DNA from: Abditibacterium sp.
GTDB lineage: Bacteria > Armatimonadota > Abditibacteriia > Abditibacteriales > Abditibacteriaceae
DNA: 64,000 nt
Assembly (NCBI GenBank): GCA_965246885.1
Contig: OZ251992.1
Span: forward strand, 2,080,001 to 2,144,000
Reading direction: 5' to 3'
Below, one piece after another: positions 23,334 to 39,837 of the stretch (position 1 is its first letter; each line of letters opens with the position of its first letter). Under the pieces are notes generated by a model. That model made no database searches and was not told the origin of the DNA. It worked only from the letters and a program-made list of their open reading frames with translations. Both the position numbers and the translations under genes were made by a program.

Positions 23334-25061
23334 CTACTTGTCCAAACCCAACTCTTTGATCTTCGCCAACACATCCGCCCCGTGCGTTTGGACGTGGACA
23401 TCGGTGTCTATCCAACGCACGACACCCGCTTTGTCAATGAGGAAAGATAGGCGCGAGGGCGCGTCAGTCTGGCTTTGGACGGCGCCCCACGCGAGGGCGA
23501 CGCGGCGGTTCGTGTCGTTCAGGACGGGAAAGGGCAGGTGCAACTGCTCGGCGAAAGCGCGCACCTTCGCCACGTCGTCGGTTGATACGGCGATGACCTG
23601 TGTGCCGCTCGCTTGCAAGGCCGGATATGCCGCGCGAAGTGACGCGAGATGCGACTCGCACCCGCCCGTGAAGCAGTGCGGGAAGAAGGTCAGCAACACA
23701 TTCGAGCGGCCCCGAAAGTCGGCGAGCGAGACCGTTTTTCCTTGCGTGTTCATTCCTACACAAGCAGGCGCAGGGGCGTTCAACGTGACGCCTTGTGCGA
23801 GCACGGGGAGCGTGCCTTCGCCGATGGTTCCGGCCATATCGAGAGGCAGTTCGCGCCCGTCCGACAGTTCGACGTTGGCGCGCTCGAAAAAGCTGTCGTC
23901 TTTTTTGCCAGCGACAGGGATGAGCAACTCGATGGCGTGCGCGCGGGCTTCTATGTTTGGCGCGAAGTGCGCGGTGAAGCCCTTCATTTGGGAAGTAATG
24001 CCGCGAATCGAGAAGGGGCGCGGGCCGTGAACGACTACTACGCGCCGTGCTGTGCCGAGGGGCGATTTGTCCAACACGACCATGCGCGGCGACGCGGAAA
24101 TGTCGTTGGAGATGAAGCCGCCAACTGGCACCGACAGCGAGCGAAGCGGGGCGCCCACAAGTTCGAGTAGCACGCTCCCGGCAAGCGGGCCTTCGGGCGC
24201 CGAGGCAGGCGCGGTCACGTCCAACGAAAAGCGCGGCAGAGCCGGGGATTTGGCATCGGCAACCGGGGGCGCGGCGACTTGGGATTGCAAGCGCGTTTGA
24301 AGCCACGCGGGAGAAGCGACCACGCGCGCCACTTTCCAGCCGACGGGTAGCTCGAAGTCGCTCTGGGCGCTTAAGGTTTGGCCCTTTTCGCCGAACAGCG
24401 AAAGCGGCGCGGGCACTTGGAAGGGCGCAAAGGTCGGCTTCGATTGGAGCGCCAACACCATCCTCCCCGCCACCGCGTCACCCGCCTGAAGCGTGACGCG
24501 CACCAGCCGCTCGGAATCGGCGTGCATCGTGGCAGTGAGCGTGGTGCTTTCTCCGGCGAGGAGGCGGCTTTTGTCCAACTTGGCAGCCGTGCAACCGCAC
24601 GAAGTCGAGACGACCGCGAGGTCGAGCGGCACGCGCCCCGTGTTGCGAAGCGCGTAGTGCGCCACGACCTGCGCGTCGTCGCCGAGCGCCGTGATGGGCA
24701 CGATTTGCACCGCGTCGTCTACCGCAAGCGCCGGGGCGGGCACGGTCGGAACGAGCGCCTCGCCGCCATACAATGCCGCGAGTTCCTTGATGGGCAGTAG
24801 CGAAAACGCGCCCTCCACCGACACCAACACCGCGTCCCGCCCCCACGCCGCCACCAACACCTGCTTCGCTCCGTTCAATGGCGCGCGCAACGACAACAGC
24901 GCCATCTGCCGCCCCGCCGCCAACTGCGCGAGCGACACCTTTTGCGAACGCGCCGCGACGGGCGCATCGGACAAAAGGGCGAACGGGTTCGCCGCTTGCG
25001 GTTGGGCATGGGCGAGCGGCGACAGCAGGAGGAGGGACAGCCCGAAAAGGTGCGGTTTCAT
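23334..25061 (-). CDS. Exported protein: partial C39-like domain + DUF1573 + Ig-like + peroxiredoxin (BCP/AhpC-TSA)
   Basis: Signal peptide ending AHA; NTG..PL....SCGCT (DUF1573); C-terminal FFPHCFTGGC (PxxxTxxC). Confidence 0.82.
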   Translation of the reverse strand: MKPHLFGLSLLLLSPLAHAQPQAANPFALLSDAPVAARSQKVSLAQLAAGRQMALLSLRAPLNGAKQVLVAAWGRDAVLVSVEGAFSLLPIKELAALYGGEALVPTVPAPALAVDDAVQIVPITALGDDAQVVAHYALRNTGRVPLDLAVVSTSCGCTAAKLDKSRLLAGESTTLTATMHADSERLVRVTLQAGDAVAGRMVLALQSKPTFAPFQVPAPLSLFGEKGQTLSAQSDFELPVGWKVARVVASPAWLQTRLQSQVAAPPVADAKSPALPRFSLDVTAPASAPEGPLAGSVLLELVGAPLRSLSVPVGGFISNDISASPRMVVLDKSPLGTARRVVVVHGPRPFSIRGITSQMKGFTAHFAPNIEARAHAIELLIPVAGKKDDSFFERANVELSDGRELPLDMAGTIGEGTLPVLAQGVTLNAPAPACVGMNTQGKTVSLADFRGRSNVLLTFFPHCFTGGCESHLASLRAAYPALQASGTQVIAVSTDDVAKVRAFAEQLHLPFPVLNDTNRRVALAWGAVQSQTDAPSRLSFLIDKAGVVRWIDTDVHVQTHGADVLAKIKELGLDK

Positions 25062-25104
25062 GGGAAGAAGGGGCGGCGGAAACTCACGAACAAGGCGCGG
25101 AATC

Positions 25105-25177
25105 CCGTAGGGACGCTGCTTGCCGCGTCCGTTCTGGATAGTAACATGAGCGGACGCGGCAAGCAACGTCCCTACGG
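25105..25177. repeat. GTAG-type REP doublet (palindrome)
   Basis: CCGTAGGGACGCTGCTTGCCGCGTCCG ... CGGACGCGGCAAGCAACGTCCCTACGG. Confidence 0.8.
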
Positions 25178-25214
25178 ACGACATCGTTTTGCTTGGTAGT
25201 GACGGAAGCTGTTA

Positions 25215-26627
25215 CTACTTACCCCCCGCCACTTTCGGCGGGTTAAGCAAAATCGCCAGTTGCAAGCGCGGCACAATCGGGTCGTTGGTTTGAAGCGAGA
25301 CGAGGACGTTTTGCGTGGGCGCCTTGAGAATCGAGCGCCACTTGACCTTGAGATCAAGCGTCGCCGTCTCGCCCGGAGCGAGCGTGTCCTTGGACAACTT
25401 CGAGTCGGTCACGCCCAACAACGGGTATTCCAACTGCAACGTGAGCGGCGTTTTGCCCGTGTTGCGGAGCGTGAACAACTGCGGCACTTCGGCATCGAGC
25501 GACGGCAGTTGAATCGAGCGCACCGCGTCCTCGGCCACGATACCCGCACTTTGCGCGACCGCCTTGGTCGGCACGAGCGCCTCGCCGGAGTAGCGCCCTT
25601 CCAACACGCTCCGCTCCACATTGCGCGTTAAGCCCCGGTCAATCACCACCGCGCGGTTAGCGTCCAACGCCGTCAAGGTCACGATGCGCCCATCGTCCTT
25701 CAAGAACAACGCCGCCGCCATCCCGCTCGCTTGCAACTGCGCCAACGTCAGCTTTTGCACCCGCGTGTCCAGCCCCAACTTCGTCGCGCCCGCTTGGATG
25801 TCCGACAACGTGAACTCCGGCTGCGCCGGGTCGAACTGCTTCCATAGCTGCTCGCGGTCGATGCCATAAATGGTCGGATACGTCACGCGGCGCGAGAGCT
25901 GGACAAGAGATTCAGGCCCACCATTATCATCAACGACATTGGTATTTATTTCAGGCTTTCCAATGAGGTGCTTTCTTTGAAACACATATTGATAGAACTC
26001 TTGGTAATCAACTACATCGAACCCGACACCTGCCTGTTGCGGAAATACAACCGAGAATCCGTCCGAGTCCTGCCAAAGTGCCTCGTCAAATGGAACCCTC
26101 GCTATTACTCCGTCAGACTTCAAAACCAAATAGTATCCAGACGGATTACTCGCTGTAGATTCATGAAGTAATGATGAGTTCTTCCTTGAATATATATCAA
26201 TGTGTGCAAATATATCCTGCTCACCTTTCTTGAGTGGGGATCCTATAGGAGATCCATCAAGTCTCCTTTCGGGCCTAAAAACGGATATAGTATCCAAAGC
26301 GTGTTCCCTAATGGATCTGCTTTCCGCGAATTTGTTATTAGGGTCAATGAGGTGTGAGACGACGTCTTTTTCTGACTCAAATCCATACACCTCACTATTA
26401 GCAATCATGTCATCTATTAAGTCTTTCCTATTCACAGGATAGGAGAGGCCATGATTTTTGGTGTAAATCTGGATAGCCCTACGGAGGTCTGACAAGATTC
26501 TCTCGCCAGAAGAAGTGTCTTGTCCATACTTGTAACTGATTGGCTCATCTGCCTTGGAATGCTGAATATGCACAAGTAATGCACAGCAGATACAAACCGT
26601 TATTACAATCTGTTTTTTGTTCTTCAT
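25215..26627 (-). CDS. Exported protein: AT-rich N-terminal domain + inactive C39-peptidase-like domain + DUF1573-like Ig domain
   Basis: Signal peptide; GGPESL...TLSDIQAGATKLGL...RYSGEAL C39 pattern lacking Cys/His; FTLRNTGKTPL..LAPGE. Confidence 0.72.
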   Translation of the reverse strand: MKNKKQIVITVCICCALLVHIQHSKADEPISYKYGQDTSSGERILSDLRRAIQIYTKNHGLSYPVNRKDLIDDMIANSEVYGFESEKDVVSHLIDPNNKFAESRSIREHALDTISVFRPERRLDGSPIGSPLKKGEQDIFAHIDIYSRKNSSLLHESTASNPSGYYLVLKSDGVIARVPFDEALWQDSDGFSVVFPQQAGVGFDVVDYQEFYQYVFQRKHLIGKPEINTNVVDDNGGPESLVQLSRRVTYPTIYGIDREQLWKQFDPAQPEFTLSDIQAGATKLGLDTRVQKLTLAQLQASGMAAALFLKDDGRIVTLTALDANRAVVIDRGLTRNVERSVLEGRYSGEALVPTKAVAQSAGIVAEDAVRSIQLPSLDAEVPQLFTLRNTGKTPLTLQLEYPLLGVTDSKLSKDTLAPGETATLDLKVKWRSILKAPTQNVLVSLQTNDPIVPRLQLAILLNPPKVAGGK

Positions 26628-26694
26628 GTCTTGTTGAATCGGCGGAACATATCTATCGAGACGATCCCGACAGATATGTTCCACCAAGTATGGT

Positions 26695-27060
26695 TCAGGC
26701 GCTGAGGCAAGTTCCTTCTTCTACGACATAGCGAACTTCAGTGCATCTGGTCAGAGGTGGCTGCATAAAACCTCGAGGGAATTTGTAGTAGTCGTAGGTT
26801 ACGCTTTCTTTGCTGAATGGCGTAAGCACGCAACTGCCGGAAGGGTCGTAACAGCCACCAACTGACAATTTGTCTGACACCAAATCGCGAACTGTGTTTG
26901 CAGAAGTCGCACATATGACATCTGTTGGTGGAAACGTGCGGGGACATTTACTCGCATGTGCAGGTTTGGCCGAGCAGAACAGCAGACTAAGGGCTGGTGC
27001 AAGGACGAGTGTGAGCAACTTCTTTTTGCTTGATGTGTGGAGTGAGCTGGATTTTAACAT
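26695..27060 (-). CDS. Small secreted cysteine-rich protein (6 Cys in mature part)
   Basis: Basic n-region, hydrophobic core, AHA cleavage site; GGGA upstream; co-oriented in operon. Confidence 0.7.
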   Translation of the reverse strand: MLKSSSLHTSSKKKLLTLVLAPALSLLFCSAKPAHASKCPRTFPPTDVICATSANTVRDLVSDKLSVGGCYDPSGSCVLTPFSKESVTYDYYKFPRGFMQPPLTRCTEVRYVVEEGTCLSA

Positions 27061-27082
27061 GGTTTCCCGTGGCTATAGTTGT

Positions 27083-28504
27083 TTAGCCAGTTTTAAGAGC
27101 GAGCAAAACTTGCGTTGTGCTCGCAGCGCGCGACGAAATTTGGAGACTAAAATGCTGACTTTTTTGCGCCTCAGAGAGTTTTGAGGAGACTTCAACGACC
27201 ACCTCCTTTTCTTCCTCATATGCCTCAAGCGCGCCTTTTTGCCAATTGTCAATCGGCAAAACGCGCACTTGAATAGCGGGATCATCAACAGTTGCGCTGA
27301 CCGACTGGTCGCCATACGTTTTGATGCGGAATCGGGCGTAGAGCGGGGCGTCGGGGTGCAACGGGTTGGTTTTGAGAACGATCTCTTTCACATCGCACTG
27401 GATGGGCTGGGTTTTCCAGCCTCCGGCGCGCAGGTAAAGGTCGTGTGCCAGCACATATAGACCTTTGGCTGGCGTCTCACTCAGCGAATCGGCATTCTTC
27501 GCCAGTTGAAGGGCTTCTTCGCTCAAGCGCATGGTTTCGTTCAGATCGCCGGCTTGATAAGCGTCGGAAGCAAGCCAAGCGTTCTGCGCCACTCGTCCCT
27601 CAACGACGGCCTCTGTCGCCTGAAGTGGTTGTGCCAAAGCGCGGCGCGCTTCCTCGTTCTTTCCAGCCCTTTTAAGGACCAGATACTCATCATAGAAGAC
27701 AAGAGCCGTGCGCCAGCCGTCGTGTTGCTCAATGGCTCCTTGACGGAGATGCTTAACCTCCTCGACTTTTTGTGGCCCAATCTTCTCCAGTTCGCGCGCC
27801 GACTCCAGATACATATCTGCCATCATCCACTTAGGCATTGGAGCGAAGTTTTTCAATTGGAGCCATGCGGTCGCGCACATTTGGTGCTGTTGTGTGTCGC
27901 GGTAGAACCAGCCAAGACGCTCGACAACTTGGAATATCAAGGCTTCGTTGTCGTTCCCCTGAATCGGTATCTGCGAATCAATTCCCGCCAAAACACTCTC
28001 ACACAACGGCACACACCGCTCGTCGCCGACGTTGCCCAGATAATCGGCGATCCACAAGCGCGCTTGGGGCGACAGCTTTCCCATGTTCTTCGCTTCGAGC
28101 AGTTGTGGGGCTTGATCTACGACGACTTTGGCGACCGCGCGGCGCAACGGCCACCACACTTCCCACCCTTCGCCGAAGCCGCCCCAAGGATGCAGGCGGT
28201 ACGAGAGCATATAGAGCGCTTCTTCCCCCGTCAACTGTTTGCTCGCCACCGCGTCGTCCACGCTCAGGCTGCCGTCCTTGAGGCGCCCCAGCAAGGCGTC
28301 GAGGTTGGCCGGGGTGTCATCCGCGACGATGGCCCCGACTTGTTCCACGTCCACAGGCGGCGCGATGGGCGCGAGACCGACCGGGGCGACGGGCACGGCG
28401 GGCTGGGAAAAGGCACAGGCTCCCACCAACAGGCTCGCGCCCACCATCCCCAACACTCGTGTCCACAACCCAACCGGGCGCGGTCTCATGGTGCGTTGCT
28501 TCAT
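27083..28504 (-). CDS. Exported helical-repeat (TPR/HEAT-like) hypothetical protein
   Basis: Signal-like N-terminus, long helical body; ATGA overlap with the upstream gene. Confidence 0.7.
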   Translation of the reverse strand: MKQRTMRPRPVGLWTRVLGMVGASLLVGACAFSQPAVPVAPVGLAPIAPPVDVEQVGAIVADDTPANLDALLGRLKDGSLSVDDAVASKQLTGEEALYMLSYRLHPWGGFGEGWEVWWPLRRAVAKVVVDQAPQLLEAKNMGKLSPQARLWIADYLGNVGDERCVPLCESVLAGIDSQIPIQGNDNEALIFQVVERLGWFYRDTQQHQMCATAWLQLKNFAPMPKWMMADMYLESARELEKIGPQKVEEVKHLRQGAIEQHDGWRTALVFYDEYLVLKRAGKNEEARRALAQPLQATEAVVEGRVAQNAWLASDAYQAGDLNETMRLSEEALQLAKNADSLSETPAKGLYVLAHDLYLRAGGWKTQPIQCDVKEIVLKTNPLHPDAPLYARFRIKTYGDQSVSATVDDPAIQVRVLPIDNWQKGALEAYEEEKEVVVEVSSKLSEAQKSQHFSLQISSRAASTTQVLLALKTG

Positions 28505-29817
28505 GGCGTGAGGGCCACCTCCTTGTCGAAGGCCGCAAGCGGGTTCTCGCCTTGACCGTTCAGGTAGGCCACGAACGCATTCGCGCGGAGCGCGTTGCCG
28601 TCCACGCTCTTCAACACGCGGCACACCATCAGCGCGCCGTCGGGCGAGTCCGGCTGCGCCCTCAAGAAAGCGCGTGCCACCGTCATCGCTTCTCCCGCAT
28701 CGGCGCGCGTGCCCAGCGCCAATCGGATCGAAACCATCTCCTCGCTCCACAGATGATCGGTCTCGCCGTCCACTCCTGCGGCGCGCGCCTTGGCCAATTG
28801 CTCCAACCGTTCTTTAAGCGGAGCGGCAAGCTTGTCGTCCTGCGTGGGCAACGCGATTTTGAAAAGCGGGTTGGCCGCAGGAGCGACAGCCGCGACGGGC
28901 GGCGCATCGGGGGCAGGAGCGGCGTCCGCAACAGGCGCCGTCGCTATGGGCTGCGTTTGAGCGCGGGTGAACAAGCGCGGCGCGCTGAAGTTTTCGTTGG
29001 CGGCCCATGCGCGGTTGAGTTGCGCCGTCGCGTGCGCCACCGAGTAGCCCTTGAACGCCGATACCCGGTAATAAAGCGCGCTCCACGCCAACGCTTCGGG
29101 CGCGCGACCATCGGCGATCAGGTCGTTCACCAGCTTCTCATACATCCATCCCGTCTGCCACGCGTCCATCCCGAAGTTCTGGCGTCCGCCATCGAGAAAG
29201 ATCGGCATCGAAAGCACCACCTTTTGCAGGGCCGCGATCACCTTCTCCCGTCCGGCTTTGGTCTCTTCGGCCTTGGCATCGCCGCCTTTGCTGCTCGCTT
29301 CGAGCGCGGTAATATAAAGCTGCACCGCCTGACGCGAAGCGAAGTCCACATAGCCCCGACCAGAGCGACCTGCCGCCGTCACGACCGGCCACTGCGCCTC
29401 GACAAAAGCCACGACATCCGAGGGCTTGTTCTGCGTGAGCAATAAGTCGGCTTTGCCCCATACGAGCGTAATGGCGCCCGCTTGTCCCTTGTAACGCGCG
29501 ATGCCTTCGTCGTAGAGGGCCGTCGCCGCGTCGTCCTGCTTCAAGCGGCGGAGCACGTCCGCTTTGGCGTTGAGAGCGATGGGTTCAACAGTCGGCCCAA
29601 GGTCGGGGTTCTTCGCCAAAAACGCATCAAGGTCGCCCGTCAAGCCCGCCGCGTCGGTTTGCATCCGCTCGTCCAACTTGACTTGCGCTTTGAAGGCGTT
29701 CCACGCGCCCCAGTTGTCGCCCTGCGCGCGCGCCACGCCGCCCCAGCCGCACGTCAAAGCGGGCGCCAGCATCCCGGCCAGCACCCACACACGACGCACA
29801 CGGAAAAAGTAGCGCAT
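28501..29817 (-). CDS. Exported TPR-like hypothetical protein
   Basis: Signal peptide ending ARA; helical repeats such as KADVLRRLKQDDAATALYDEG. Confidence 0.75.
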   Translation of the reverse strand: MRYFFRVRRVWVLAGMLAPALTCGWGGVARAQGDNWGAWNAFKAQVKLDERMQTDAAGLTGDLDAFLAKNPDLGPTVEPIALNAKADVLRRLKQDDAATALYDEGIARYKGQAGAITLVWGKADLLLTQNKPSDVVAFVEAQWPVVTAAGRSGRGYVDFASRQAVQLYITALEASSKGGDAKAEETKAGREKVIAALQKVVLSMPIFLDGGRQNFGMDAWQTGWMYEKLVNDLIADGRAPEALAWSALYYRVSAFKGYSVAHATAQLNRAWAANENFSAPRLFTRAQTQPIATAPVADAAPAPDAPPVAAVAPAANPLFKIALPTQDDKLAAPLKERLEQLAKARAAGVDGETDHLWSEEMVSIRLALGTRADAGEAMTVARAFLRAQPDSPDGALMVCRVLKSVDGNALRANAFVAYLNGQGENPLAAFDKEVALTP

Positions 29818-29993: not shown

Positions 29994-30230
29994 AGAGTCG
30001 TCGCCGCTCCTTCATTCATTGTCGTTTGCGCGTTGATTGACGTCGTTTGCGCCTCAACGGATGAAGTTGGCGCCTTGATTAACGTCGTCGCTGCCTTAAC
30101 TCGTGTCGTTGGCGCCTCAACTCGTGTCGTTGGCGCCTCAACTAACGTCGTCGGCGCCTCAACTAACGTCGTTGCTGCCTTAACTGACGTCGTGGGCGTC
30201 TTGATTAACGTCGTTTGTCTGTCAACTCAT
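29994..30230. repeat. 21-bp-period tandem array (~11 units); open frame 29973-30233 encodes VVGAST-type heptads
   Basis: GTCGT core recurs every 21 nt from 30021 to 30210. Confidence 0.85.
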
Positions 30231-37946: not shown

Positions 37947-39299
37947 TTAACCTTGAAGCGCGATCAGGTTCGGGTCTTCCAATGCCGCCGCGATGAAGCG
38001 GGTGAACCGTGCGCCGTCGGCGCCGTTGATGACGCGGTGGTCGTAGCTCAGACAGAGCGGCATCATCATGCGCGGCTCGAAAGTTCCACTCTCGGCGTTC
38101 CACACTGGCTCCATGCTCCCGCGCGCAATGCCCAAGATGGCGACTTCGGGGGTGTTGACGATGGGCGTGAACGCCGTGCCGCCGATGCCGCCAAGGTTGG
38201 TGAGTGTGAACGTGCCGCCCGCCATTTGTTCGGCTTTGAGCTTGCCTTCGCGCGCAACGGCGGCGATTTCGCCCAACTCGACGGCGAGTTCGATGATGCT
38301 TTTCGATTCGACGTTTTGAATGACCGGCACGACCAAACCGCGCGGCGTGTCAACGGCGACGCCGATGTTGTAATACCGCTTCTGCACGACTTCCATCGCC
38401 GCGAAGTCAATCGAGGCGTTGAAGTTCGGGAATTTTTTGAGCGCGCCCACGACGATCTTCAGCAAAATCGCGGTAGGCGTGAGTTTGCCGCCCGCTTTCT
38501 CGGCGAGCGGCGCGTATTTCTTGCGGAAAATCTCGAAGTCCGTCGTGTCCGCTTTATCGAATTGGGTGACGTGCGGGATTGTCCACGCGCGCTCCATTTG
38601 GTTCGAGGTCGCCTTGCCGATGCCGGACATCGCCACGCGGTTGACCTCGCCGAACTTGGAAAAGTCGGGCAGGGCGGGGAGGGAAACGCCGCCCGATTGA
38701 ACCGGTGCCGCGACGGGCGCGGGCTTGCCAACCGAGTGAATATCGTCCTCGGTGATGCGCCCGCCAACGCCCGTCCCGTGAATCGCGTAGATGTCCACGC
38801 CCGCCTCGCGCGCCATGCGGCGAATCGAAGGCGCGGCGGCGACGGGTTCGCGCGGAGCGTCGGGCGCGGGCGTCGAAACGGCAAGCGGCGCGGGAGAGGT
38901 CGTGGAATAGCCGTCGTTTTTGACCGCCGTCGCTTTGGGCGCGGTCATGTCGGCGGGCGGCGTCGGCAACTTCGCTTCCGAAGCGGCGGTTTGTTCGGGC
39001 GCGGCGCTGTCGCGTTCGATGCTCCCGTTTTTCGCCGCGCCGTTGGAATGGGCGGAGGCGCTCCCGCCCTCGCCATACGAGAAAATGGGTTGAGAAACCG
39101 AGACCGTGTCGCCCTGTTTGACGAGGATGTTTTGAATCGTGCCCGCGACGGTCGAAGGCACTTCCAACACCGCTTTATCGGTTTCGAGTTCGAGAATGGG
39201 CTGGTCTTGGGCAACGGTGTCGCCCGCACCCACCAGCACTTTGGCAACAACCCCGCTCGTCGCGGTCTCGCCCAAGGTCGGCAAAAGAAATTCGGCCAT
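37947..39299 (-). CDS. aceF: Dihydrolipoamide acetyltransferase (PDH E2)
   Basis: Lipoyl ETDKA, E3-binding GTGVGGRI, catalytic DHRVINGADGA. Confidence 0.93.
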   Translation of the reverse strand: MAEFLLPTLGETATSGVVAKVLVGAGDTVAQDQPILELETDKAVLEVPSTVAGTIQNILVKQGDTVSVSQPIFSYGEGGSASAHSNGAAKNGSIERDSAAPEQTAASEAKLPTPPADMTAPKATAVKNDGYSTTSPAPLAVSTPAPDAPREPVAAAPSIRRMAREAGVDIYAIHGTGVGGRITEDDIHSVGKPAPVAAPVQSGGVSLPALPDFSKFGEVNRVAMSGIGKATSNQMERAWTIPHVTQFDKADTTDFEIFRKKYAPLAEKAGGKLTPTAILLKIVVGALKKFPNFNASIDFAAMEVVQKRYYNIGVAVDTPRGLVVPVIQNVESKSIIELAVELGEIAAVAREGKLKAEQMAGGTFTLTNLGGIGGTAFTPIVNTPEVAILGIARGSMEPVWNAESGTFEPRMMMPLCLSYDHRVINGADGARFTRFIAAALEDPNLIALQG

Positions 39300-39394
39300 G
39301 ATGTTCCCCCTTAATTTAGCAAACGCCGTGCGCCATTTTCGCACCCCCGCCATTCTTCTCGCAGGCCGATTCCGTTTTCAGCGCATCGAAATGG

Positions 39395-39562
39395 GCGAAA
39401 AGTTGACCGAAACAGGCGGAAAGACGACCGTAACACGCGGAAACGTAATAGCAATACGCGAAAAGTTGACCGTGTCGCGTGAAAAGTTGACCGTGACACG
39501 CGGAAACATAATAGCAATATGCGAAAAGTTGACCGTGCCGTGCCGAAAGATGACTGAATCGG
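39395..39562. repeat. 21-bp-period tandem array (8 units)
   Basis: GCGAAAAGTTGACCG-like units at 39395, 39416, 39437 ... 39542. Confidence 0.85.
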
Positions 39563-39567
39563 CGGCT

Positions 39568-39600
39568 TTCACGCTCAAAGCGCGCCCGTGAGGGCGCTTT
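39568..39600. repeat. 33-bp direct repeat, left of VapBC
   Basis: TTCACGCTCAAAGCGCGCCCGTGAGGGCGCTTT; one mismatch to 40233-40265. Confidence 0.85.
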
Positions 39601-39630
39601 GATGTCGCAATATCCGGTAAAATCTCTCGC

Positions 39631-39837
39631 ATGAATACAGTCATGGTCTCGCCAGAGTTTCAAGTAGTCATACCGCTTGAGGTTCGCCTATCGCTCGGCA
39701 TCGAGCCGGGGCAGAAAGTGCAGGTCATTCAATACAATAATCGTGTTGAACTCATCCCCGTGCGCCCCATAGAGCAAGCGCGCGGAATGTTGAGGGGGAT
39801 TGACACCCACATCGAGCGGGAAGGCGACAGAAGATGA
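39631..39837 (+). CDS. vapB: AbrB/MazE-family antitoxin (VapB)
   Basis: VSPEFQVVIPLEVR..LGIEPGQ; ATGA overlap with the PIN gene. Confidence 0.9.
   Translation: MNTVMVSPEFQVVIPLEVRLSLGIEPGQKVQVIQYNNRVELIPVRPIEQARGMLRGIDTHIEREGDRR

Follow-up and report, generated by a model that had tools for sequence, protein, structure and literature searches.

A low-GC gene pair for a small cysteine-rich exported protein and a variable partner domain, exchanged between conserved flanks in an Abditibacterium operon

We describe here a minus-strand operon (positions 23334 to 29817) in a 64,000-nucleotide window of Abditibacterium sp. DNA (assembly GCA_965246885.1, contig OZ251992.1, positions 2,080,001 to 2,144,000), in which two adjoining elements are exchanged together as a low-GC cassette between conserved arms: the gene for a small exported cysteine-rich protein (the cargo, ORF3) and the sequence for a variable N-terminal domain of the protein that follows it (the head, in ORF4; ORF, open reading frame). 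The operon is a real and apparently undescribed polymorphic system. The reading that we favour, which to our minds has about an even chance of being right, is that it forms a maturation line in the periplasm, where an exported disulfide protein that varies from strain to strain would be handled with the help of an allele-matched recognition head, because the variable head is fused to constant domains of maturation type, a partner protein is fused to a C39 domain in a sister branch, loss of C39 catalysis tracks loss of the leader, and a hairpin follows the cargo gene. An earlier note on this DNA had listed the five genes of the operon, as we do, but mentioned neither the variable head nor the cassette. 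The elements under discussion are as follows.

25847-27239, no strand: exchangeable cassette (end of ORF2, ORF3, hairpin, ORF4 head)
29817-28501, minus: ORF1 (P0001), 438 amino acids (aa), exported helical-repeat protein; accessory
28504-27083, minus: ORF2 (P0002), 473 aa, exported TPR-like protein with a conserved C-terminal beta domain
27060-26695, minus: ORF3 (P0003), 121 aa, the small exported cargo; 36-residue signal and 85-aa mature protein with 6 Cys and three predicted long beta strands
26641-26685, minus: stem-loop directly past the ORF3 stop
26687/26627-25215, minus: ORF4, variable head followed by a C39-like/DUF1573-like tail
25956-26519, minus: ORF4 head, variable unnamed domain (N-terminal ~190 aa), predicted type IV pilin/DUF1559-like fold
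25215-25870, minus: ORF4 tail, by its residues a dead C39-like domain, and a DUF1573-like Ig domain without CGC
25184/25061-23334, minus: ORF5 (P0005), half C39-like domain, DUF1573 with SCGC, further beta domains and a C-terminal peroxiredoxin

A cassette exchanged between conserved arms

The cassette is visible in base composition and in alignment. Over the stretch from about 25.9 to 27.2 kb, GC drops to 43-52% from about 64%, and GC at third codon positions is 0.43-0.48 for ORF3 (0.48) and the ORF4 head, 0.38 for the middle of ORF2, and 0.78-0.84 for ORF1, the ORF4 tail (0.84) and ORF5. DNA similarity to related operons is confined to 27191-27461 (extending to 27808 in locus L018), 25228-25920 and ORF5; the middle aligns nowhere. 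The upstream arm, at about 27191-27461, is the 3' end of ORF2 (68-87% DNA identity), the downstream arm, at 25228-25920, lies in ORF4 (74-78% identical to relatives), and the same arms surround unrelated middles in three or four related operons. The encoded proteins follow this pattern: against three same-genus orthologues, ORF4 is 28-32% identical in the head, 44-69% in the C39-like part and 79-85% in the DUF1573 part; against three orthologues each, ORF2 is 24-44% identical over residues 40-355 and 57-78% over residues 355-445, and ORF5 outside its peroxiredoxin is 63-67% identical. The 46 ORF4 homologues fall into 90% clusters of one or two members each.

Further alleles are at hand. Run X1 yields a second allele between the same arms: a contig of 1480 nt aligns with the window at 25767-25846 and at 27240-27335, and the 1304 letters that separate the two matches differ. 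Its depth is 2.8, compared with 26.3 for the window's own allele. A related strain in the sample may be its origin, and X1 is possibly the run from which the window itself was derived. In genome G004, repeated ORF2-like and ORF5-like segments of a tandem array enclose different low-GC payloads. Tandem cassette arrays with insertion-sequence (IS) insertions are found at L025 (G004:C8:2796000-2812000) and L077, where the payloads are cysteine-rich HExxH proteins of 334-391 aa without a Pfam match and the partner proteins are fused to the same peroxiredoxin as that of ORF5. The operon type is present in 3 of the 12 other genomes of the genus. A variable gene pair is therefore exchanged between conserved flanks, as in polymorphic toxin-immunity systems.

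The pairing of cargo and head extends well beyond the genus. Among 54 head genes in the loci collected, three fused genes and five without flanking sequence were set aside and one frameshifted gene was counted once, giving 46 stand-alone head genes. A small ORF (60-240 aa, at least 6 Cys) lies directly upstream of 28 of these 46, compared with 23 of 261 other genes of the same loci, counts in which related loci are not independent. Pairwise similarities of cargoes and of heads are correlated (Mantel rho 0.49, n=25), and order and pairing are kept across many genera; a metagenome scan gave one locus. In the related operons whose upstream part could be read (L017, L018, L048 and L078), a small cysteine-rich exported ORF occupies the same slot in all four, so that homologous operons do not lack one, as they might have done had the earlier note's proposal been wrong. 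The conserved core is the small protein together with the pilin-fold head (28/46). Near the 28 pair loci, a CGC-type DUF1573 lies within 2.5 kb in 14 and a peroxiredoxin in 4, and the peroxiredoxin and the dead C39 read as lineage add-ons; the earlier interpretation is thus supported in part.

The cargo, the head and the fused domains

ORF3 has seven cysteines, six of them (positions 39, 50, 70, 77, 106 and 118) past the AHA/S site, just as had been noticed before. What the cargoes have in common is a set of cysteines near the N terminus, a loop of C-x-D-x-D-G-D-like type (a pattern match in 13 of 25; CYDPSGS in ORF3) and two C-terminal cysteines. With a leave-one-out family profile, 21 of 27 cargoes outscore all 200 shuffles; the L018 cargo is not recognised (123 of 200 shuffles as good), and ORF3 is assigned by its position, size and cysteine spacing because the profile does not recognise it either. 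A search with the cargo profile returned 4 proteins, 2 of them copies of input rows, and ESM Atlas matches for the cargo are all under 0.9. The predicted structure of ORF3 has three long strands in an open three-stranded sheet (predicted local distance difference test score, pLDDT, 81.7), with no fold match at Z>=5 and nothing in Foldseek at E<=0.001; profile searches against PDB sequences gave nothing significant, and there is no Pfam, NCBIfam, PDB-sequence or fold match to any toxin domain. A weak topological match to laterosporulin3 (Z 3.2, 48/49 residues) is tied with many unrelated rows. We ruled out a cationic defensin, net charge being <=0 in 22 of 27 cargoes. Ratios of nonsynonymous to synonymous substitution (dN/dS) are 0.21-0.55 for the cargo (five close pairs) and 0.11-0.25 for the head (four pairs), and on these values both behave as real genes under purifying selection, the cargo changing faster; with every ratio under 1, diversifying selection finds no support.

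The stem-loop past the ORF3 stop (-36.9 kcal/mol, z -6.1) is unique in the genome, has no U-run and was not called as a terminator; it likely stabilises the cargo mRNA. In each of 5 operons of this type, a strong hairpin (z -4.9 to -7.8) of unrelated sequence comes after the cargo gene, against a background of 19 in 120 gaps.

The head is, by sequence comparison, an unnamed protein family: a profile built from 9 sequences gathers 302 clusters at 50% identity, 138 of them at E<=1e-30, from 37 of 401 Armatimonadota genomes and 25 of 207 genera. No Pfam or NCBIfam family covers it; weak pseudopilin G matches appear in 1 of 9 and 1 of 99 members, and Pfam DUF1559 does not match. What fold is predicted? 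The model (pLDDT 92.7) finds its best pilin match in PilA4 (Z 5.1, root-mean-square deviation 2.7, 87 aligned), followed by ten further pilin rows at Z 3.1-4.2; among the 50 best rows, those aligned past the N-terminal helices are type IV pilins or pseudopilins (Z 3.1-5.1), a weak but consistent signal, and Foldseek gave nothing at E<=0.001. Aligning the head with four neighbouring DUF1559 proteins in hhalign gave 68% over the last 38 columns, and in ESM Atlas the head lies near unnamed clusters (0.90-0.91, with low shared-feature counts) and a DUF1559 cluster (0.87), which we treat as leads only. An N-terminal hydrophobic segment is present in 67 of 84 stand-alone heads; a prepilin cleavage/N-methylation motif is present in none of the 84, nor in ORF4 by inspection.

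The head's fusion partners are informative. It is joined to the dead C39 and DUF1573 in ORF4, and also to a peroxiredoxin in 5 of 46 homologues. Elsewhere it is the C-terminal domain of BlaR1/M56 proteins (L039, L044, L046 and P0191) beside BlaI repressors and of a fusion with an extracytoplasmic function (ECF) sigma factor (P0118); these positions are normally those of extracytoplasmic binding domains and therefore suggest that the head is a binding domain facing the periplasm. The window's genome has a single head, without a signalling domain. Side observations at head loci include a head gene behind a PadR-like gene and a HAAS gene (L038), two apparent heads each in P0054 and P0138, and DUF1559 prepilins, DUF2079-type genes and O-antigen-ligase-like genes as neighbours of several loci. 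DUF2079-type membrane genes adjoin L024, L028, L029, L034, L035 and L040 (Pfam-confirmed for L028, by likeness for the others) and an O-antigen-ligase-like gene adjoins the cargo-head locus L023; a link to glycosylation is possible.

The assignment of ORF4's tail as C39-like plus DUF1573-like holds, with weak matches to C39 (E 0.002) and to DUF1573 (E 1.6e-4, 22 bits, under the cut-off). So does the view that its C39-like domain is dead, as judged from its residues: the catalytic Cys is lost in ORF4 and in 46 of 46 homologues, and 45 of the 46 have lost the His as well. A search of the genome, which is 93% complete, turned up no other C39, and this one is not on an ABC (ATP-binding cassette) transporter, in line with the reported absence of an ABC exporter. 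ORF5, which had been called a paralog of ORF4 with a peroxiredoxin and an SCGC motif, has both, DUF1573 (PF07610, E 9e-10, 38.8 bits against a cut-off of 26.1) with SCGC at 195-198 and AhpC/TSA (PF00578, E 8e-30) with P502-H-C-F-T506-G-G-C509, i.e. PxxxTxxC, but aligns with only the C-terminal half of the C39-like domain; moreover, CGC is the normal DUF1573 motif and so no novelty. All 22 peroxiredoxin sequences listed, some of them redundant, have an extra Cys five residues ahead of the peroxidatic one. A search with a stand-alone DUF1573 gave 2 close matches only. Published lists of selenoprotein families include DUF1573, with UGC as its motif (PMC9312934 and PMC13188914), a form that points to a reactive first Cys in CGC.

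Double-glycine (GG/GA) leaders separate two branches. None of the 25 head-linked cargoes has one, nor does ORF3, and 4 of 6 small proteins of sister cassettes do; the C39 encoded at each of these 4 loci retains both Cys and His. In sequence, then, predicted loss of C39 catalysis goes together with absence of the leader. In the sister locus L086, the variable partner is itself fused to an intact C39.

L077:6509, L082:4517, L086:1335 and L017:15476: small Cys-containing proteins with a signal and a double-glycine-type leader, in loci with an intact exported C39 (the sister branch)

The two upstream genes had been described as helical-repeat proteins. The TPR match of ORF1 is marginal (E 0.05); ORF2 has no Pfam match of its own, but its homologues match TPR families. 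ORF1 homologues occur in 9 of 31 genomes of the class, its own included, directly upstream of ORF2 homologues in L069-L075 and L079 and away from any cassette in L076, L080 and L081. Homologues of ORF1 and ORF2 are found, too, ahead of exported payloads of other kinds (Ig-rich proteins, HExxH proteins and further small cysteine-rich proteins), and in L086 a LolA-like partner accompanies a small cysteine-rich payload.

All five ORFs are intact and co-oriented, and each has an N-terminal hydrophobic stretch (13-residue mean hydropathy 1.8-3.3), which agrees with the export signals claimed earlier, as judged here on a simple hydropathy scale without a signal-peptide predictor. The claim of tight spacing holds less well. 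ORF1 and ORF2 overlap by 4 nt, ORF2 and ORF3 are 22 nt apart, and ORF3 and ORF4 67 nt apart with the internal start at 26627; ORF5 probably starts at 25061 rather than 25184, because the first 41 codons from 25184 run across a REP-like palindrome, and with that start the gap to ORF4 is 153 nt and not tight.

25105-25177, no strand: REP-like palindrome in the ORF4/ORF5 gap (30-nt arms, 93% complementary; ~14 other sites in the genome); incidental

The operon has ffh on one side and an rRNA methylase gene on the other. Nearby lie a degenerate 21-nt tandem repeat upstream of ORF1 (30021-30230, one similar site elsewhere in the genome), over which an open frame runs with no clear start codon; three tandem secretin-family genes (PF00263; 31084-36287, plus strand), 1.3 kb away on the opposite strand; and a low-complexity repeated intergenic stretch (39139-39663) after a dihydrolipoamide acyltransferase-like gene. 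PADLOC gave no match and no plasmids were found.

A maturation line and its competitors

How might such an operon work? As a maturation line, its proteins would be exported through Sec, and both the cargo and its predicted specific binder, the head, would come from the cassette. Holding the cargo and handling its disulfides would fall to the constant parts (dead C39, DUF1573-CGC, peroxiredoxin and TPR proteins), and a redox relay may run, in either direction, among the cargo cysteines, the CGC and the peroxiredoxin. The cargo would be made in excess of its machinery, and its final role may lie in a strain-specific cell-cell interaction, be it recognition or antagonism. We can also envisage, more tentatively and with a clearly smaller chance of being correct, a phylum-wide lock-and-key in which hypervariable disulfide-locked beta miniproteins meet allele-matched, pilin-derived heads that no longer enter a pilus, a private relay driven by the peroxiredoxin works with a pseudo-C39 chaperone, and the products serve as strain-specific weapons or identity tags sensed by BlaR1- or ECF-type sensors that bear the head. 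If so, the operon would belong to the leaderless branch of a wider family, the other branch of which carries out periplasmic double-glycine processing.

Several observations weigh against a maturation line. The Mantel correlation is expected from linkage and kinship alone. Of the 46 head genes, 18 fail the strict small-ORF test, which means that a head need not have a cargo gene beside it; some of the 18 are misses, for example L021, where the gap is too long, and L049, L052 and L059, where frames are broken. The family profile misses the window's cargo, a degenerate member (69 of 200 shuffles as good), the double-glycine pattern was written down after the sequences had been inspected, and a strong hairpin is found in 0 of 4 distant loci tested (z -2.3 to 0.1). 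Most distant loci have no peroxiredoxin (present in 4 of 28), and a private oxidase is not required because the genome has VKOR, DsbA-like and DsbD-like genes elsewhere. DsbB was not found in the genome; we had considered that it might have no general oxidase, a reading ruled out by VKOR.

The strongest competitor, unlikely in our judgement but to be taken seriously, is a polymorphic toxin-immunity pair in which the cargo is a narrow-spectrum bacteriocin-like toxin and the head a periplasmic immunity protein. It overlaps with maturation and differs in the purpose given to the head. A variable cargo gene followed by a variable partner, low GC, exchange between conserved arms and a scattered distribution (3 of the genus's 12 other genomes) are what such a pair would show, as are head genes without cargo, also in tandem (L052, L053), the double-glycine leaders and intact C39 of sister cassettes, and the HExxH payloads of G004; the weak topological match of the cargo to laterosporulin3 counts in its favour too. 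Those payloads match no Pfam family, however, and the head is fused to domains of maturation type; the laterosporulin3 match is shared with many unrelated rows, and cargoes of zero or negative net charge are unlike cationic defensins.

We give a smaller chance still to a surface fibre or adhesin, in which the beta-rich cargo, produced in excess, would polymerise or form the tip and the head would prime or anchor it or deliver it to a type II/type IV machine. The predicted pilin-like fold of the head and the modelled open sheet of the cargo would suit this, as would the CxD..DG-type loop of 13 of 25 cargoes, which we take to resemble calcium-binding loops of adhesins. Big_1, invasin or FlgD Ig domains occur in further payloads that follow the same TPR pair, and the DUF1559, DUF2079 and O-antigen-ligase-like genes beside several loci fit as well. 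On the other hand, the missing prepilin motif (0 of 84) makes ordinary pilus incorporation unlikely, the operon has no outer-membrane channel, and no counterparts of the window's secretin genes turned up among the ORFs listed for L017 or L018. A periplasmic C39 protein, FapD, does serve fibre secretion (PMC5557850, available text), but FapD needs the catalytic Cys that the ORF4 domain has lost.

Less probable again is a signal-receptor pair, in which the cargo would be a strain-specific signal received by the head and read by BlaR1- or ECF-type sensors with the same domain. The fusion of heads to an ECF sigma factor and to M56 peptidases with neighbouring BlaI repressors, and the L038 head gene behind PadR-like and HAAS genes, point this way, but these sensor fusions come from other genomes, and the window's single head has no signalling domain. 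None of these three readings excludes a maturation line. A loose island, with unrelated acquired genes around a periplasmic protein of ordinary peroxide defence, has very little left in its favour: plain peroxide-reducing periplasmic peroxiredoxins are known (PprX; PMC3322552, available text) and the operon sits between ffh and a methylase gene, but this idea is largely refuted by the neighbourhood data, with gene order and pairing kept across many genera, C39 activity tracking the leader, and the hairpin kept without sequence similarity.

Relation to known systems and significance

The operon behaves like a bacteriocin or polymorphic-toxin cassette yet fails the tests for double-glycine bacteriocin systems, Fap, enzyme-modified peptides and prepilins, in line with the earlier impression that it fits no standard class. 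In CDI (contact-dependent inhibition), Rhs and MafB systems, a C-terminal toxin tip on a carrier is exchanged. The operon shares with them a low-GC variable gene pair between conserved arms, tandem alternative cassettes and partner genes without cargo, and differs in that exchange affects the cargo in its entirety, no known family of toxin or immunity protein is present and the partner is fused to maturation-type domains. An enzyme-modified RiPP (ribosomally synthesised and post-translationally modified peptide) does not fit either, since, as had been noted, Pfam and NCBIfam scans of the five ORFs show no class-defining modifying enzyme. The heads resemble DUF1559 (PF07596) proteins, type IV pilins and pseudopilins in a predicted long helix with a C-terminal sheet and in their similar sequence ends, but have no N-methylation signal and are tethered by a plain signal or membrane anchor. 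Periplasmic PprX/BCP-PrxQ enzymes also have an exported peroxiredoxin domain with PxxxTxxC; ours is fused to DUF1573 or other cassette proteins and has the second Cys five residues before the peroxidatic one.

Systems built on a PCAT (peptidase-containing ABC transporter) with double-glycine bacteriocins or on a CLD (C39-like domain) likewise place partner, thiol-redox and C39-family genes after a small cysteine-rich precursor, and a dead C39 is described as a substrate chaperone for the CLDs of type I secretion (PMC5557850, available text). In our operon, by contrast, everything has a putative Sec-type signal, the C39, inactive by its residues, is separate from any ABC transporter, and a double-glycine leader is absent from the cargo. 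Pseudomonas Fap offers a Sec-exported C39-family domain, FapD, that serves a secreted protein, but FapD is active and accompanied by the FapF barrel and Asn/Gln-rich amyloid subunits (PMC5557850, available text), none of which is among the five ORFs. Laterosporulin-type bacteriocins are small beta proteins with a weak fold match to the cargo (Z 3.2), from which our cargoes differ in being larger, mostly acidic and equipped with signal peptides; the laterosporulin cluster contains an ABC transporter, a dehydrogenase and a regulator, and the presence of an AhpC gene in it found no support, the available main text making no mention of one (PMC3293901). The literature searched, mostly open-access with subscription papers largely outside it, holds no description of the cargo-head architecture.

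What does the operon offer to the field? It ties two unnamed families, the cargo and the pilin-fold head, into a testable cognate pair, and it gives a handle on the cell-envelope roles of DUF1559-type pilin-like domains and of DUF1573, both of which have long been without a function. The passage from a leader with an active periplasmic C39 to no leader with a dead C39 is a natural test of a pseudo-peptidase turning chaperone. If the pairs prove specific, they would form a library made by nature, of small scaffolds stabilised by disulfides and paired with their binders, and would open a route into strain-level interactions in the poorly studied phylum Armatimonadota.

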